Positions 23,436 through 30,958 of a stretch of DNA of 64,000 bases are shown here, in pieces. Where the stretch lies: contig JAZDLX010000115.1 of the NCBI GenBank assembly GCA_043801585.1, positions 32,001-96,000 of the forward strand, written 5' to 3'. The notes under the pieces are model-generated. The model was not told the DNA's origin, did no database searches, and saw nothing but the letters and a program-made list of their open reading frames with translations. Each line of letters begins with the position of its first letter. Positions within the stretch are counted from its first letter, which is position 1. The translations under genes and the position numbers were made by a program. This DNA comes from a bacterium (lineage in GTDB: Bacteria; Electryoneota; Electryoneia; Electryoneales; Electryoneaceae).

Positions 23436-25007
23436 TCAGCTTTCCTTGACCGCCTCGATGATCTCGGCGAAGGCCTTCTTGCCGTCGTTGAAGAACATCA
23501 GGGTGTTGTCCAACGCGAACAGCGGGTTCGGAATGCCCGCAAAGCCCGGCGACAGCGAGCGCTTGATCACAATCGCCGTCCTTGCCTTATCCACGTTGAT
23601 GATCGGCATTCCGGCGATCGGGCTGTCCGGGTCGGTGCGGGCGACGGGATTGACCACGTCGTTGGCGCCGACGACGATGGCGACGTCGATGGTGTCGATG
23701 TTGTTGTTCGACTCCACCTCATCCCACAGTTTGTCATAGGGGACGTTCGCCTCGGCCAGCAGCACGTTCATGTGGCCGGGCATCCGGCCCGCGACAGGAT
23801 GGACCCCGAAGAACACCTCGGTGGTGTACTTCGACTCGAGCAGATTCGCGAGGTCACGCACGGCGTGCTGTGCCTGGGAGACGGCCATGCCGTATCCGGG
23901 GACGATCAGGACGCGCTGTGCGGTTTCGAGCATCATCGCGATCTCTTCCGCGGAAGTTACCTTGACGGTTTTGTAGATCTCGTTGGCGTCCATCGTGGAC
24001 TCGGTCGCGCCCATCGCTCCGAAGAGTACGTTGGGCAGCGAGCGGTTCATCGCCTTGCACATGATGTTCGTCAGGATGACGCCCGACGCACCCACCAGCG
24101 ATCCGGCGATGATCAGCACGGTGTTGCTGATGACGAAACCGGTCATGGCGGCCGCGATGCCGGAATAGCTGTTCAACAGGGCGATCACAACCGGCATGTC
24201 CGCGCCACCGATCGAGAAGGTGAGCAGGATGCCAAGCACCGCGGAAACGCCGATCAGCACCCAGTAGAGCAGCAACGTGTGCTCGGTGGGAACCACTTCC
24301 GTCCCAGACAACTGCACGACGAGTACAACGCCGACGATCAGGGCAATCGCACCGGAGAACATCTTCAGCGCCTGCATCCCCGGGAAGATCGCCTTCCTGT
24401 TCAAGGTCAGCAGACCGGTGAGCACAAAGGTGGCGATCACCAGCCAGGAGAGCGGGGTATAGGCGTAGGTGGAAGCGATGTAAACGCCGAGAGCCGCAAC
24501 GATCAGCGCGAAACCATACTTGATCAGCTTCTGCCAGGTGTGAAGTTTCCACTTCACCGCGAGGAACTCCGACAGCTTGCCAAACGCAATGTAGCTGCCG
24601 AAGAAGGTGACGCTGCCGACCAGACCCGCCAGCACGGTGGCGATGGACTTCTGCATGTCGGCCGGTTCGTGGCCGTGGATCACCTTGACCAGCTCGGCGG
24701 CGGCGACAACCAGTGACGCAGCGCCACCGAATCCGTTGAAGATGGCCACCATTTCCGGCATCGAGGTCATCGCGACACGGACTGCGGCAATCCAGCCGAT
24801 CGCTCCACCGATAATGAAACCAATGATGATGTAATGATACTCCAGGCCGCTGGCGAGGAGTGTGATCACGACGGCGATGAGCATACCCAGGGCGCTGGTC
24901 AGGTTGCCCTTGACTGCGGTGCGCGGGTGGGACATGCCCTTCAATCCGTAGATGAAAAGGACCGACGCGATCGCGTACACGATGTTTTGAAGGCTTTGAG
25001 AAACCAT
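23436..25007 (-). CDS. pntB: NAD(P) transhydrogenase subunit beta
   Basis: MPEMVAIFNGFGG, IGGADMPVVIALLNSYSG, VPGYGMAV, HPVAGRMPGHMNVLLAEA. Confidence 0.97.
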   Translation of the reverse strand: MVSQSLQNIVYAIASVLFIYGLKGMSHPRTAVKGNLTSALGMLIAVVITLLASGLEYHYIIIGFIIGGAIGWIAAVRVAMTSMPEMVAIFNGFGGAASLVVAAAELVKVIHGHEPADMQKSIATVLAGLVGSVTFFGSYIAFGKLSEFLAVKWKLHTWQKLIKYGFALIVAALGVYIASTYAYTPLSWLVIATFVLTGLLTLNRKAIFPGMQALKMFSGAIALIVGVVLVVQLSGTEVVPTEHTLLLYWVLIGVSAVLGILLTFSIGGADMPVVIALLNSYSGIAAAMTGFVISNTVLIIAGSLVGASGVILTNIMCKAMNRSLPNVLFGAMGATESTMDANEIYKTVKVTSAEEIAMMLETAQRVLIVPGYGMAVSQAQHAVRDLANLLESKYTTEVFFGVHPVAGRMPGHMNVLLAEANVPYDKLWDEVESNNNIDTIDVAIVVGANDVVNPVARTDPDSPIAGMPIINVDKARTAIVIKRSLSPGFAGIPNPLFALDNTLMFFNDGKKAFAEIIEAVKES

Positions 25008-25019
25008 GATCGTCGATCC

Positions 25020-25298
25020 TTACTTTTTCTTGAACATCTGAAGCATGCGATGGGTGACGAGATAACCGCCGACCACGTTGATGGTGGCGAAAATCATCGC
25101 GAGCATGCCGAACAGTTTCGAAAGTTCAGGCTCTTTGATGGTGCCTGCCGCAAAGATGGCGCCGATGATGGTGATGCCGGAGATCGCATTCGATCCCGAC
25201 ATTAACGGCGTATGAAGCATTGGCGGCACCTTCGTGATTACTTCGAACCCCACGAAGATCGCGAGGACGAAGACCGTCAACAGCATGACGAGGTCCAT
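25020..25298 (-). CDS. pntAB: NAD(P) transhydrogenase alpha-2 (membrane part)
   Basis: KVPPMLHTPLMSGSNAISG, NVVGGYLVTHRMLQMF. Confidence 0.95.
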   Translation of the reverse strand: MDLVMLLTVFVLAIFVGFEVITKVPPMLHTPLMSGSNAISGITIIGAIFAAGTIKEPELSKLFGMLAMIFATINVVGGYLVTHRMLQMFKKK

Positions 25299-25307
25299 CC
25301 CTCCTCC

Positions 25308-26588
25308 TTATTTCTTTTTAGTCGTCTTCTTCGTCGGAGCCTTTTTCGCGGAGGTTTTCTTCACCGCGACAGGCTTTTTCGTTGCGGCTTTCTTCGCCGG
25401 GGCCTTTTTACCGCCCTTTGACTTTTTCGCCGAAAGGGCTTCAATCAATTCCTTGACCCGTGGATTGACGATTTCGCCACCCTGGCAGATCATGCTGCCC
25501 GCGGTGATCTCGTCTTCCAGGTTGAGCACCAGCTTGCCTTCTTTGTCAGCGAGGTGCTGAAGCAGGGTCTGGACGTTCTTGGCGTACATCTGGCTGGCGT
25601 GGAAGGAAACGGTGGAAGTGATATTCTCGGGGCCGTTGATGAACACACCGTTCTTGGTTGTGATCGTCTTGCCGTGCACCGTCAGTTCGCAGTTGCCGCC
25701 ACGTTCGCTGGCGAGGTCAACAATCACCGAACCGGGTCGCATTGCCGCGACTTGGCTTTTGGTAACCAGAACCGGGGAACGCTTGCCTGGAACCGCCGCA
25801 GTGGTGATCACCACATCCGCCTCGGCGATTGCCTTGCCCATCGCCTCGCGCTGCCTCTTCAGGAATTCTTCGCTCTGTTCCTTCGCGTAGCCGCCGGTGC
25901 CCTGCGCCTCGCTGGTATCCAGTTCGACCTCGACGAACTTGCCGCCGAGGGATTCGATCTGCTCCTTGACTTCCGGGCGGACGTCATAGGCGTGAACGAT
26001 GGCGCCGAGACGTTTCGCAGTCGCAATCGCCTGCAGTCCCGCAACTCCCGCACCGATAATGAACACCTTCGCCGGGGCAATCGTCCCCGCAGCGGTCATC
26101 ATCATCGGGAACATCTTTGGAAGCAGGCTCGCGGCGATCAGGACGGCTTTGTATCCCGCCACATTCGCCTGAGATGAAAGGGCATCCATGGACTGCGCAC
26201 GAGTGATGCGGGGGATCAGCTCCATCGAGAAGCTGATCGCACCTGTCTTTGCGAGTTCCCTGGCTTTGTCAGGGCTGCCGAGTGGATCCGTGTGGCCGAC
26301 AATGACCTGTCCAGCCTTGATCTTTTTCAGATCACTCCTGCCAGCGCCATTGTCACCACCGTAGGCGCGGACCTGGGCGATGACGTCTGCCTTCTTGAAA
26401 ACGTCGTCGCGCTTTCCGATGCTGGCGCCCTTGGATGTGTAGGTCTCGTCCGTAAAGCCGGCTTCCACACCGGCTCCCTTCTCGACGAGCACCTTGAAAC
26501 CTTTCCGGGTGAGCTGGTGCACGATATCCGGCACCAACGCCACGCGCTTCTCGCCCGGAAACAGCTCTTTGGGCACTCCGACAATCAT
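25308..26588 (-). CDS. pntAA: NAD(P) transhydrogenase alpha-1 (NAD-binding) with Lys-rich C-terminal tail
   Basis: GEKRVALVP, PRITRAQSMDALSSQ, GAGVAGLQA, GGYAKE; start 26588 or 26600. Confidence 0.96.
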   Translation of the reverse strand: MIVGVPKELFPGEKRVALVPDIVHQLTRKGFKVLVEKGAGVEAGFTDETYTSKGASIGKRDDVFKKADVIAQVRAYGGDNGAGRSDLKKIKAGQVIVGHTDPLGSPDKARELAKTGAISFSMELIPRITRAQSMDALSSQANVAGYKAVLIAASLLPKMFPMMMTAAGTIAPAKVFIIGAGVAGLQAIATAKRLGAIVHAYDVRPEVKEQIESLGGKFVEVELDTSEAQGTGGYAKEQSEEFLKRQREAMGKAIAEADVVITTAAVPGKRSPVLVTKSQVAAMRPGSVIVDLASERGGNCELTVHGKTITTKNGVFINGPENITSTVSFHASQMYAKNVQTLLQHLADKEGKLVLNLEDEITAGSMICQGGEIVNPRVKELIEALSAKKSKGGKKAPAKKAATKKPVAVKKTSAKKAPTKKTTKKK

Positions 26589-27078
26589 GGCGATGTCCAT
26601 CCCTTGTTTCGTTTGTCTTATGCCCTGCGACCAATTACGTCGTGGGCCTCGCTTTTGGTTTTGTTCCAGTTGCGGGGTCATCCCGCCGAGATAGAAACTC
26701 CTCCGGCCACTCGATTCTTTGGCATGGCAACTGCCCGTCTAACGTTATGCCTGAGTGTTCAAATTCCGCTTTGCGACGGGAAATGTGCTGGCGAAAATAG
26801 GTGCAGCCTCTCGTGCAGTCAAGAGTGCGGGAGGTGCCTGCATCCCTTGTCATTGTTGAAAAAGGGTGCGCAAATGCCGCAAAGCGAACAATCACGGGTG
26901 TTACAGGGGGATGGAATATTCGCACTTGAGTGCTGAAACCGATCCTTTCGACTCTCAGAGACCCTGAAATCACTGGTAATGTTGATGTGCAGGTTCATCC
27001 AATGGAAAGAGAGGCGAGAGGAGGTGTCGGGTCTTTCCTCTTGCGCCATCGGATAAATAAAGTCACTCGGAGCATAAA

Positions 27079-27636
27079 GTGAATACCAGCCCTGTCGTTG
27101 ATCTGTTGCGCGGAAGGCGGTCTACCCGGTCGATCGATTCACGACCTCTTCCAGAAGAGGTCGTTCAGGATCTCATTGAAGCGGTACGCCTGACTCCTTC
27201 CTGTGCGAACAACCAGCCATGGCGTTACATCTTTGCGGAGAGCGAAAACGAACGCCAGCGCATCTCGGAAGCCTTCATCGGCGCCAATGCCGCCTGGGCT
27301 CCGCGAGGAGCGTTGATCGTCTGTGGCTACAGCCGGGCATCCGAAGATTGCCGCAACGAGGATGGGAGGGAGTATCACCAGTTCGACCTCGGCATGGCAA
27401 CGATGAACATGATGCTGGCAGCAACAAGCCATGGACTTGTCGCCCGACCAATGGGGGGATTTAATCCGGATGTCATCCGCAGGCTCTACGGCCTCGACCC
27501 GGAGGATCAACCTCTTGTGATGGTTTCCATCGGACGCCCGGGCGCGAATGAGGATCACCTGCCGGAGAAGTACAAGGGAATTGAGGACAAACCCAGGAAT
27601 CGTAAAAGCGCCGCGGAGATCATCCGCAGGGTGTGA
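27079..27636 (+). CDS. Nitroreductase family protein
   Basis: RRSTRS, TPSCANNQPWRYI, DLGMA..NMMLAA, PMGGF. Confidence 0.92.
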   Translation: MNTSPVVDLLRGRRSTRSIDSRPLPEEVVQDLIEAVRLTPSCANNQPWRYIFAESENERQRISEAFIGANAAWAPRGALIVCGYSRASEDCRNEDGREYHQFDLGMATMNMMLAATSHGLVARPMGGFNPDVIRRLYGLDPEDQPLVMVSIGRPGANEDHLPEKYKGIEDKPRNRKSAAEIIRRV

Positions 27637-27666
27637 GGAGCAGGTGCCAGTTGCTTAGGGATGAAC

Positions 27667-28055
27667 ACAATATGTCACCCCCAGCGCTATCTGTCACTCC
27701 CCGCGCTACCTGCCACCCCCGGACAATATGTCACCCCCGCACAGGTGGGGGTCCAGACAATAAACCATGGCCGACCATCCGGATTCCCGCCTGCGCGGGA
27801 ATGACATTTCTACGTTTCCGTCGGTTCCTTAGCGAAAGCGTGTTCAGTCATCCTGAACCGGCCTGCCAAAGGCAGGCGCAGTCTGTTCAGGATGACCGGA
27901 TTTGGACTGTCCCGCAGGTTTCTCAGCGAAGCGGAGAACCGATGGATAGAGACGGGGTGTCGGGTTTCCACTTCGTTTACGACCCGACACAACAAAGAAA
28001 GCTATAAGGCAAATAGTCAGCAGGGCCATTCTCCCTGTCCGAGAGAGAATGGCCC
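27667..28055. repeat. Cluster of REP-like palindromic elements
   Basis: TGTCACCCCCGCACAGGTGGGGGTCCA + inverted GGATTCCCGCCTGCGCGGGAATGACA; GTCATCCTGAAC..GTTCAGGATGAC; GTGTCGGGT..ACCCGACAC; GGGCCATTCTC..GAGAATGGCCC. Confidence 0.75.
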
Positions 28056-28114
28056 GTTGTGCTCATGCAATACTTGAAGTGCGCCGAGGGTATTCTGGAA
28101 TACCTCCGGTCAGG

Positions 28115-28545
28115 TCAATTGCCGGTCGAGAGATCTTCAGGAGCGTTGTTGGATATCCAGTCCTCGATTGCCTGGATGTTGTCAGTGCGGATGTTTCCGC
28201 CCGGGGGCATTCTCGGAAACCCCTGACCCTGACTCGACTCAGCAATTCGCTTGCGCTTGGGTTGCCCGGAAGGATCACACGGTTCCCGCTTGTCGTCACA
28301 TGGCTGACGACCGGGGTGTACGTTGCAACGCTGAATCCGCTTTGAGCATTCGATCCACCGTGGCATGCGCTGCAATAACCATCGAGCATCGGTCCGATCG
28401 TGTGCTTCCAGTCTAGATCAGCATTCGGATCCAACGTGAATCCTGAGCCTGCAGGTCCCTGATTGGAGCACCCAGAAAGAAGAATCGTCAGAAGAACGGT
28501 CGCAAGAATCGCCCGTGGAAGGACGAATCGGATACTGGATTCCAT
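28115..28545 (-). pseudogene. Monoheme cytochrome c lipoprotein (planctomycete cytochrome c-like), split by a -1 frameshift
   Basis: Lipobox LSGC, CSACH, VILPGNPSASELL in one frame; RMPPGG..IQAIEDWISNNA in the adjacent frame; junction ~28216-28230. Confidence 0.8.
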
Positions 28546-28784
28546 GAAGAAAATCCTCCGATGATGAAAACCGTCATTTGACTGACGCAGTAAATGACAC
28601 GGTAACCTGCTGCACCTCAAATGTGTTTCATCATCGAAGTCCTTTCACGGCTGATTTGAGAGATTAAAATGCCGTGAAAGCAAAGTTAGGGTGTTATAAC
28701 ATCAAGCGTTTTTTCAAATCGAGGAAATGAAGGTAAACCGAGATGGAGCACTGAAACGTTGAATTTATCAACGTGATAACGTGG

Positions 28785-28824
28785 AAAAAGGACATCCCCC
28801 GACTCTGATGAGGTCGGGGGACGT
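28785..28824 (-). terminator. Intrinsic terminator of candidate sRNA
   Basis: ACGTCCCCCGAC/GTCGGGGGATGT 12-bp stem followed by CCTTTTT. Confidence 0.7.
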
Positions 28825-29007
28825 TTCAAACCCTGCAGAATTCGTGCTGCCCTTACATACGCCGGAGCCGGTTCGAACGTATGGCCTAGGATCGTGCCCG
28901 AATCCCTTCGGGTTTGACCGAGAATTGGGATTGGGTGGGTGATATCCAGTGTGGTTAGGGGTACACTGGATACCACAATTGACAAGGAACCAAACACAAC
29001 AGATCCG
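28785..29007 (-). ncRNA. Candidate sigma54-dependent structured small RNA (~225 nt)
   Basis: Between canonical -24/-12 promoter and intrinsic terminator; 14-bp hairpin, C-rich linker, 92-nt rod, terminator; G-U wobbles favour the minus strand; no credible ORF. Confidence 0.65.
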
Positions 29008-29017
29008 AAAACTGTTT

Positions 29018-29034
29018 TGCAATGGTTGTGCCAA
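29018..29034 (-). promoter_or_regulatory. Sigma54 (-24/-12) promoter
   Basis: TTGGCACAACCATTGCA, GG-N10-GC, near consensus. Confidence 0.8.
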
Positions 29035-29050
29035 TCATCTAAAACACTCG

Positions 29051-29063
29051 TATCATCTTGTTA
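29051..29063. promoter_or_regulatory. IHF-like site
   Basis: TATCATCTTGTTA vs WATCAANNNNTTR (1 mismatch), between promoter and upstream palindrome. Confidence 0.5.
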
Positions 29064-29107
29064 TTATAAGGTATAAGTCCGTTCCTGCCGATCATGTCAC
29101 ATTCGCC

Positions 29108-29128
29108 GTTGTAGGAATACGCTACAAC
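29108..29128. promoter_or_regulatory. Putative bEBP upstream activator site
   Basis: Perfect inverted repeat GTTGTAG-N7-CTACAAC ~110 bp upstream of predicted TSS. Confidence 0.55.
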
Positions 29129-29418
29129 AGGTTCCGATTATGAGTTTCGATACGAAGCATCCACTGTTCATGGATGAATTCACTGCCTGAACGTTTACCC
29201 TACAACGAACGATAGGTGGAATCCAGTTGACTGGTTTATGTGTTTTAAGGTGTTGCCTGAGAGCAGGAAAATGTACAAAATACCTTTTCATATGAGAACA
29301 AGCAATTTTCCCGGTAAGGGAAAAAGTACCTGGTACATTTTCCGGCACGTTCCCTGGTTATGCAGGCTGCCATCCGTTATTGCACGCTCACGCGCGAGGG
29401 ATTCAGGCGGCGAAGCCA

Positions 29419-29447
29419 TTGCGTATCTTTCGTGTTCTCGGTATACT
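29419..29447 (+). promoter_or_regulatory. Sigma70 promoter of yicC operon
   Basis: TTGCGT-N17-TATACT, 28 nt before ATG. Confidence 0.65.
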
Positions 29448-29475
29448 TCGGCGGTTTCAATCAGAAGGGGGTCAG

Positions 29476-30354
29476 ATGATTGTCAGTCTTACCGGTTTCG
29501 GCCGGGCGGAAGTGGAAGATGGGGATCTGCGTTTCAGCGTGGAAGTGCGCAGCGTCAACAACCGTTTCCTCGAGATCGGCACCAAGTTGCCACGCAGCCT
29601 GGTCAACCAGGAGATGGAGTTTCGTGCCCTGGTTCGCAACCGTGTCGATCGCGGCAAAGTGAACCTGTTTATTCAGGAGGACCGGTCGGCGATCCGGCAA
29701 ACAAAGCTGAATTTTGACCAGGCTTCCGCCAAGGCCCTCGCCGACGGACTTCGCGAGCTTGCTCAATCGGCTGGTGTCAAGGACGATCTGACCCTCTCGG
29801 ATCTTGTACACTTGATGGAATGGTTCACCGGCGAGAACGATGACGAGGATTCAGGCCAGCGGTTGGCGCTGGCGAAAAGGGGGATTGAGGCCGCGTTCGA
29901 CGAATTCGACCGCATGCGTGCGGAGGAGGGCAACAACCTTGAAGCCGATTTCCGGCAGCGGCTTGAGTCGATTTTCGAAGTGCTCGCGAAAGTGGAAACC
30001 AAGACAGACACTGTCCGCGAGAGCCAGCTCGAAAAGCTGCGTGAACGGATCGAGCGCTACGTCACCTCCGACCAGGTAGATGAAAGCCGTCTCGAACAGG
30101 AAGTCGCTTACATCCTGGACCGGTTGGACATTACCGAAGAGATTGTGCGGCTTCGCAGCCATATCCAGCTTTTCCATAATGCCCTCGAGGGCGGCGGGAG
30201 CGTCGGCAAGCGCTTGAATTTCATTCTTCAGGAAATGAACCGGGAGATCAACACGATTGGTTCGAAATGTCAGGACGCCGAAACGGCGTCGTGGGTCGTG
30301 GAGATGAAGGACGAGGCGGAAAAGATACGCGAACAGGTCCAGAATGTCGCCTGA
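29476..30354 (+). CDS. yicC: YicC/YloC family endoribonuclease
   Basis: SLTGFGR, RSVNNRFLE, DITEEIVRL, GKRLNFILQEMNREINTIGSK, REQVQNV. Confidence 0.95.
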   Translation: MIVSLTGFGRAEVEDGDLRFSVEVRSVNNRFLEIGTKLPRSLVNQEMEFRALVRNRVDRGKVNLFIQEDRSAIRQTKLNFDQASAKALADGLRELAQSAGVKDDLTLSDLVHLMEWFTGENDDEDSGQRLALAKRGIEAAFDEFDRMRAEEGNNLEADFRQRLESIFEVLAKVETKTDTVRESQLEKLRERIERYVTSDQVDESRLEQEVAYILDRLDITEEIVRLRSHIQLFHNALEGGGSVGKRLNFILQEMNREINTIGSKCQDAETASWVVEMKDEAEKIREQVQNVA

Positions 30355-30958
30355 TGGGAAACGGAGTCCGGGATGCCTGATCGTCTTTGCTGCGCCTTCG
30401 GGCGCAGGAAAGACCACGATCATTCACCAGGTGATGCAGCGTGTTGAGGGGTTGACTTTCTCGGTATCCTCGACGACACGAGCCCGCAAAGAGGGGGAAG
30501 TGGACGGCGTCGATTATAACTTTCTCGGCGAGGAAGAATTCGACACGGCCCTGAAAGCGGGGGATTTTCTCGAACATGAAATTGTCCACGGGAAACTATA
30601 CGGTACGCGTATTTCAAAGATCCAACCGCTGCTTGACGAGGGGAAGGATGTCGTATTCGATCTGGACGTGCTCGGAGCATTGAATGTAAAACGACTGTTT
30701 CCTCAAGCACTCTTGATATATATTGAAGTTCTCTCGACGGAAATTCTTCGAGACCGGCTGAGAAAGCGAGGCCGCGAGAATGACGCCGAGATCGATCTGC
30801 GCCTGAAACGTTACGAAATGGAACGTTCAAAGGCGCAGCAGTTTGATAGGGTCGTGATCAACGACGATCTCGAGTGTGCAGTTCAGGAGATTGTCGATGT
30901 GATCGAGCGTTTCCGGAGCGGCGAACATGCCGCTTCCACACGAGGAGGAAGGCCGTGA
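30344..30958 (+). CDS. gmk: Guanylate kinase
   Basis: APSGAGKTT, SSTTR..EVDGVDYNF, FLEH..YGT. Confidence 0.96.
   Translation: MSPDGKRSPGCLIVFAAPSGAGKTTIIHQVMQRVEGLTFSVSSTTRARKEGEVDGVDYNFLGEEEFDTALKAGDFLEHEIVHGKLYGTRISKIQPLLDEGKDVVFDLDVLGALNVKRLFPQALLIYIEVLSTEILRDRLRKRGRENDAEIDLRLKRYEMERSKAQQFDRVVINDDLECAVQEIVDVIERFRSGEHAASTRGGRP

Follow-up and report, generated by a model that had tools for sequence, protein, structure and literature searches.

Within the window, by which we mean the whole 64,000-nucleotide stretch of DNA analyzed here, a predicted RNA gene lies on the minus strand between two protein genes: a downstream cytochrome c lipoprotein gene (PSCyt1; 28063..28545, minus strand), an unconserved neighbor outside the RNA, and yicC, which encodes a YicC/YloC endoribonuclease and is read divergently (29470..30354, plus strand). 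The gene opens with a sigma-54 -24/-12 promoter box (29018..29034), from whose position the RNA is expected to start near 29007, and closes with a predicted intrinsic terminator (28785..28824) made of a hairpin (28792-28824) and a U-tract (28785-28789), giving a transcript of ~223 nt (28785..29007) with predicted ends. A simple terminator scanner left this terminator unlisted, its loop limit being 3-8 nt and its tail window opening 0-2 nt past the stem. From 5' to 3', the predicted fold comprises a 14-bp hairpin with a C-rich loop (28939..28976), a C-rich single-stranded linker (28926..28938) and an interrupted rod (28826..28917) with an apical stem-loop (28856..28883) that includes two U-G type pairs, a G-C closing pair and the 9-nt loop AACCGGCUC (28865..28873), invariant in the alignment of homologues. 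Upstream of the box are two putative activator sites: a proximal 15-bp imperfect palindrome (29111..29125), 91 bp before the box, and a weak distal copy (29144..29158), 33 bp from the first. A sequence-only reading of this DNA had described the box, the C-rich hairpin, the rod and the terminator, each of which was recovered in place on the minus strand. In the surroundings, a short stretch near 28690-28705 resembles the same spot in a related genome (G001) and may be the promoter of the cytochrome c lipoprotein gene, in place of which G001, G003 and G008 have a CxxCH protein without Pfam family; further away, the three genes at 23436-26681, the first encoding a protein with a lysine/alanine-rich tail, form a putative NAD(P) transhydrogenase-like cluster, named by family features. 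Here and below, G000 is the genome of the window, other G numbers are genomes of its family, L numbers are loci and C numbers contigs.

Folding supports a structured RNA on the minus strand, where region 28780-29007 (228 nt) reaches -85.8 kcal/mol (z -3.9), a value equaled by 0/200 shuffles. Regarding strandedness, it had been proposed that the wobble pairs favor the minus strand only; the bias is real and, in G000, modest, the plus strand of the same region having a z of -2.8 with 1/200 shuffles equal. The rod taken by itself has z values of -1.6 in the sense vs +0.1 in the antisense orientation, and the antisense rod folds better than the sense one in 3/13 homologues (G005, G012 and G009). 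When 35 nt of downstream DNA are added to the G000 fold, an alternative pairing of the lower arm of the rod appears. Opening the 9-nt loop costs 1.0 kcal/mol in G000.

Relatives were searched for the RNA, including the regions upstream of yicC as the sequence-only reading had suggested, and homologues with a covarying apical stem were recovered. DNA search and inspection of these upstream regions gave the first eight copies and a pattern search the ninth, in G010; a covariance model built from the nine, used with strict filters in the large search, found one copy each in 11/16 genomes of the family, adding G002 (E 1e-4) and G006 (E 0.015). Two metagenome copies (L276 and L294) bring the total to 13, with predicted lengths of roughly 124-244 nt. 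The five family genomes lacking the RNA (86-96% complete) are four members of genus g11 and G004, and the same model and filters gave 0/63 in genomes of eight other families of the phylum. Public collections were screened with a 21-letter pattern, too strict to catch copies as divergent as those of G002 and G006: the 27 genome matches comprised 8 known family copies and 19 sequences without stem and promoter, the 31 metagenome matches included 4 family copies (L276 and L294 being the 2 new ones), 0/7 viral matches were family copies, and nothing was found outside the family. A 17-letter pattern gave at least 120 matches in genome contigs, mostly by chance. With an apex model, no E value below 0.06 was obtained in G013 or in four genomes of the sister family. 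Two candidates were rejected: L269, which scores 33 bits, yet lies inside a 776-codon ORF without promoter, and L051:202-293 in the RNA-lacking G015, a hairpin with the same loop-like 12-mer that neither model matches and that sits between tRNA-Cys and tRNA-Leu.

As for novelty, no Rfam (15) family matched above chance in 27500-30500 or in nine homologue loci, and no description of the RNA was met in Rfam 15 or in the literature reached, a scope that left out most subscription papers and supplements of RNA-motif surveys. For Pxr (RF01812), the best score in G000 is 18.1 bits, elsewhere in the genome and against a gathering threshold of 80 bits, with none in the window. The decamer AACCGGCUCC turned up in a paper on a vector, and the portions available of the article on Electryoneota (AABM5-125-24, FCB group) do not mention small RNAs (PMC9324843). 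Judged by sequence comparison, the element is real and represents a conserved RNA family, apparently not described before, that most species of a single uncultured bacterial family retain.

The conserved core of this family is the rod and its tip. The decamer AACCGGCUCC caps the rod, unchanged, in 13/13 copies, each with a sigma-54 box 97-197 nt before it; the TGGCA and TGC columns of the box do not vary among the nine aligned copies. Folded with the loop held open, the rods span 84-99 nt and 27-36 bp, a geometry kept across homologues whose lower arms share a mean ungapped identity of 28%. In the apical stem, 90.9% of 132 cells are paired, and 13 cells are changed on both sides; this covariation, whose counts are inflated by kinship, was reached by 0/500 shuffles, while slid partners pair in 26-45% and two pair-count measures were attained by 72 and 74 of the 500 shuffles. 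Four of the apical stem pairs never or almost never vary. RNAalifold, run on sequence-only alignments, was limited to the 9-11 pairs of the apex, since the lower rod defies alignment. By contrast, the C-rich loop and tract, earlier put forward as the functional seed, are lineage-specific and occur in G000, G001, G008 and L294 only (4/13), and this role is not supported; the sequence-only reading had noted the rod without singling out its tip. Most copies finish in a hairpin followed by a U-tract, which is weak in G003, L294 and L276 and follows the rod's own base directly in G005 and G012. The apical loop AACCGGCUC is likely the working surface of the RNA.

Regarding activation, most homologues carry the 15-bp imperfect palindrome at a distance of 80-135 bp upstream of the box, as a rule in two copies with a spacing of 31-33 bp. 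At least 7/10 consensus positions are matched in 10/13 copies, and the summed match is 100 vs 76 +/- 3 in 300 shuffles, the consensus being taken from the same sequences. When the 108 sigma-54-like promoters of G000 were scanned with a matrix built from these same sites, and hence with partly circular scores, the present promoter came first with 21.7 bits, the next reaching 7.6; a strict genome-wide scan of G000 returned 2 sites. The gene rpoN is present in 15/16 family genomes, G000 included, and G000 encodes 15 full sigma-54 activators. A tree of 71 activators from five genomes, built with a quick search, left two candidates, L306 and L315, with the same presence pattern within that tree. 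L306, which passes no NCBIfam cut-off, is an NtrC-type regulator encoded behind a gene for a GAF/HisKA membrane kinase (G000:C100:13480-16051), and its orthologues (73-93% identity) occur in 11/11 RNA-bearing and 0/5 RNA-lacking family genomes (E 1e-110). The G000 copy is truncated at the end of its contig, whereas the orthologue L419, for instance, is full-length. Since the five RNA-lacking genomes come from two genera forming a single group in the activator tree, this co-occurrence may reflect one loss. In G000 the two genes are not adjacent, the regulator being on contig C100 and the RNA on C84 beside yicC. A 60-64% orthologue of the regulator is found in 4/9 genomes of the sister family, and its recognition helix is nearly invariant across both families. 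At four sister-family loci (L594, 6172-6330; L598; L602; L609), matching half-sites 30-31 bp apart follow the regulator gene, in gaps that also contain a sigma-54 box and lead up to a gene for a TPR protein; the fifth locus, L595, whose regulator may not be the orthologue, has neither half-sites nor box. The covariance-model and apex-model searches detected no copy of the RNA in these sister-family genomes. At L594 the TPR-protein gene precedes a peptidase C25 gene, and the sister-family kinase has an extra PDZ domain. On these comparisons, the L306 regulator is probably the activator of the RNA gene. The sequence-only reading had proposed an independent sigma-54 RNA gene under activator control, a proposal strengthened by the 13 conserved copies, the convergent neighbors described below and the support for a candidate activator; we regard such a non-coding gene, whose transcription is predicted, as very probable.

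Among the sigma-54 RNAs of other bacteria, Qrr (LuxO) and CrcZ (CbrB) each stand under one enhancer-binding protein, as the present RNA would under its candidate, and Qrr, CrcZ and the CsrB/RsmZ-type RNAs act with Hfq, Hfq/Crc or CsrA. In contrast to the Qrr/CrcZ situation, Hfq was not found in G000 (0/1 genome, 92% complete), and, unlike CsrB/RsmZ-type sponges, the RNA has loops without repeated GGA in a family where CsrA was found in 0/5 genomes. RapZ and Jag_N were likewise not found in 16 (0/16) and five (0/5) genomes, respectively. With Hfq, CsrA and RapZ not found, the RNA must work without a chaperone or with a novel one. A close parallel is Pxr of Myxococcus with PxrK/PxrR, which is reported to act through a conserved loop in a host without Hfq and shares with the present system, here on computational grounds, a sigma-54 promoter, an upstream enhancer region, a dedicated kinase with a sigma-54 regulator, a conserved loop as likely working part and a host without detected Hfq (PMC5684412; PMC10217877). 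Pxr differs in belonging to another phylum, in folding into three short stem-loops instead of one long rod and in having its regulator gene directly upstream. GlmY/GlmZ with GlrK/GlrR is similar in that a sigma-54 small RNA with a conserved central stem-loop has tandem activator sites ~100 bp upstream and is distributed like a single two-component system (PMC4152352). It is nevertheless distinct: the RNA described here matches no Rfam family, occurs as a single copy without a pair, has a palindrome unlike the site TGTC-N10-GACA, and comes from genomes without detected RapZ. Like the C-rich anti-Shine-Dalgarno RNAs of the RsaA/RsaE type, the RNA has an unpaired CUCC that could pair with GGAG, making an anti-Shine-Dalgarno role of the invariant tip possible; unlike them, it keeps its C-rich loop and tract in 4/13 copies only, and its invariant part is a loop of mixed sequence. 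With trans-acting small RNAs in general, it shares a promoter and a terminator of its own (allowing for the weak U-tracts noted above) and the lack of a conserved ORF.

The search for mRNA targets gave few leads. In G000, no perfect site of at least 9 nt lies at the ribosome-binding site of a credible gene, and in a ranking of 569 G000/G005 orthologue pairs, for which 2.0 of the 5.4 Mb of G005 were covered, the top combined score did not stand out from shuffled seeds (33/40 shuffles as high; 10/20 with a wider window). Family-wide patterns for the loop complement returned nothing informative, the leaders of yicC (14 loci) and of the regulator (11 loci) contain no conserved site, and most loop-complementary 7-mers are not enriched in leaders; in permutations, CCGGTTC reached a rank of 0.02-0.03 and GAGCCGG one of 0.06-0.10 (8 words, uncorrected). 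One group of genes recurs, an export operon of the order yip1-tolC-MFP-ATPase-permease (G000:C27:1088-10518), three of whose eight genes rank 5, 38 and 55 of 2391 as targets in G000 and whose permease is the top, non-significant, pair of the G000/G005 ranking. The motif GAGCYGG occurs in 6/14 permease leaders of the 11 RNA-bearing genomes (both paralogues in G000 and one leader each in G001, G005, G008 and G009) vs 0/5 in RNA-lacking genomes, with backgrounds of 1.2% and 0.8% of leaders, bearing in mind that two of the six had served to pick the gene and that three represent one paralogue lineage. Its position varies from -9 to -38; it is missing in G002, G003, G007 and G012, and reduced to a 6-mer in G006, while in G010 it contains a wobble and falls inside the coding region. 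From these sequence matches, it is rather doubtful that this TolC/MacB-type operon is a target of the RNA. Two further observations were made on the way: at L059 (G009:C26:215127), a 12-nt stretch perfectly complementary to the RNA tip lies ~60 nt upstream of a 71-residue ORF, itself preceded by the gene of a PAS-type sigma-54 activator, and at L576:1-65 (G004:C140), a 7-bp tandem repeat of about nine copies sits just upstream of the ABC-permease gene.

A pairing seed typically shows as unpaired sequence that stays invariant while the scaffold around it varies. By analogy with the first loop of Pxr, the open loop of the rod suggests such a seed, and we give roughly even chances to a trans-acting, Hfq-free small RNA that would pair through its loop and be what a dedicated two-component system mainly drives through sigma-54. 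The membrane GAF/HisKA kinase would phosphorylate the NtrC-type regulator, which would bind the two palindromic sites ~90 and 122 bp upstream and open the sigma-54 promoter, yielding an RNA that stops at the terminator described above. Its long rod would present and shield the invariant 9-nt loop, from which pairing with GAGCCGG-like sites in mRNA leaders could nucleate without Hfq; the weak U-G pairs under the loop could then open and lengthen the duplex. The yip1-tolC-MFP-ATPase-permease operon offers a weak lead as to the target.

The conserved length of the rod is not explained by seed pairing alone, and it is here that a second reading has its strength. The RNA may be a protein ligand, acting as decoy, scaffold or allosteric partner of a protein that would read the tip and measure the ~90-nt rod. 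The span is fixed at 84-99 nt though the sequence is free, the invariance reaches into paired positions (four stem pairs), and neither the 569 orthologue pairs nor the permease leaders yielded a convincing conserved mRNA target. A precedent exists in the sigma-54 decoy RNA GlmY (PMC4152352), whose central stem-loop is read by RapZ. However, the usual partners (RapZ, CsrA, Hfq and Jag_N) were not found in the genomes searched, each molecule offers one site, unlike multi-site sponges, and no candidate protein emerged, which leaves this reading a serious, less probable one.

The proximity of yicC raises the question of whether the RNA could be a substrate, decoy or guide-like partner of YicC itself, whose channel engulfs stem-loops, within a turnover module. 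The gene is the divergent neighbor of the RNA in 10/13 copies, and YicC is reported to engulf and cut the stem-loop of a small RNA while sparing the paired RNA (10.64898/2026.05.21.726821). Against this, the linkage is broken in G002 and G010 (G006 being not callable), yicC is found in 61/61 genomes searched whereas the RNA is restricted to one family, and E. coli YicC is reported to favor small, less structured RNAs (10.64898/2026.03.25.714237); we consider this partnership improbable. More improbable still is a housekeeping RNA of the 6S, SRP, tRNA-like or Y-like kind that has diverged, or an RNA binding tRNA T-arms, suggested by the rod shape and by a complementarity of 7-8 nt between the tip and 4/41 tRNA/tmRNA genes of G000. 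The complementary stretches were not placed within the tRNA fold, no Rfam family is matched, separate 6S (RF00013; C113, 50.8 bits) and SRP (RF00169; C55, 53.1 bits) genes are found in G000 above cut-offs, and 5 genomes of the family, like the 63 from other families, lack the RNA. Finally, a role in cis on the downstream gene, be it as leader, attenuator or riboswitch, is largely refuted, as is a gene for a short peptide: the next gene is co-oriented, and of varied kinds, in 5/11 genomes, and in G000 the RNA is crossed by two ORFs, one of 103 and one of 88 codons, a qualification to the earlier statement that there is no RBS-led ORF, yet the 13 homologues have no common reading frame or start, the invariant core is flanked by insertions of 1 and 2 nt, and the next gene is convergent in 6/11 genomes (G002, G005, G006, G009, G010 and G012), so that the RNA is no leader.

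The number of known sigma-54 small RNAs is small, and the ones checked come from Proteobacteria and myxobacteria; the present family comes from an uncultured lineage of the FCB group and offers a predicted complete circuit, from kinase, regulator, sites and promoter to an RNA with an exact 9-nt surface. The sister family provides a natural before/after comparison of a transcription factor handing its output to an RNA, as sites of the same regulator are found there directly at protein genes, including homologues of the export operon. In four of its genomes, the palindrome stands at conserved spots 20-130 nt before tolC, MFP and ABC-permease genes (L432, L433, L438, L441, L443-L446 and L449, ~1501); no sigma-54 box was found behind these palindromes, which are possibly repression sites. 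It is conceivable, if unlikely, that an ancestral sigma-54 two-component regulon was rewired in one family, where the regulator would have exchanged its protein genes for a single chaperone-free rod RNA, which would control the export operon post-transcriptionally or bind a novel class of RNA-measuring proteins. As to the signal perceived, the kinase/regulator pair ends a conserved cluster (G000:C100:11036-16051; L417, L584-L593) that also encodes a ubiE/menG-like methyltransferase, component I of heptaprenyl diphosphate synthase and a TPR lipoprotein, a gene content that is a possible pointer to a signal from quinones or the membrane.
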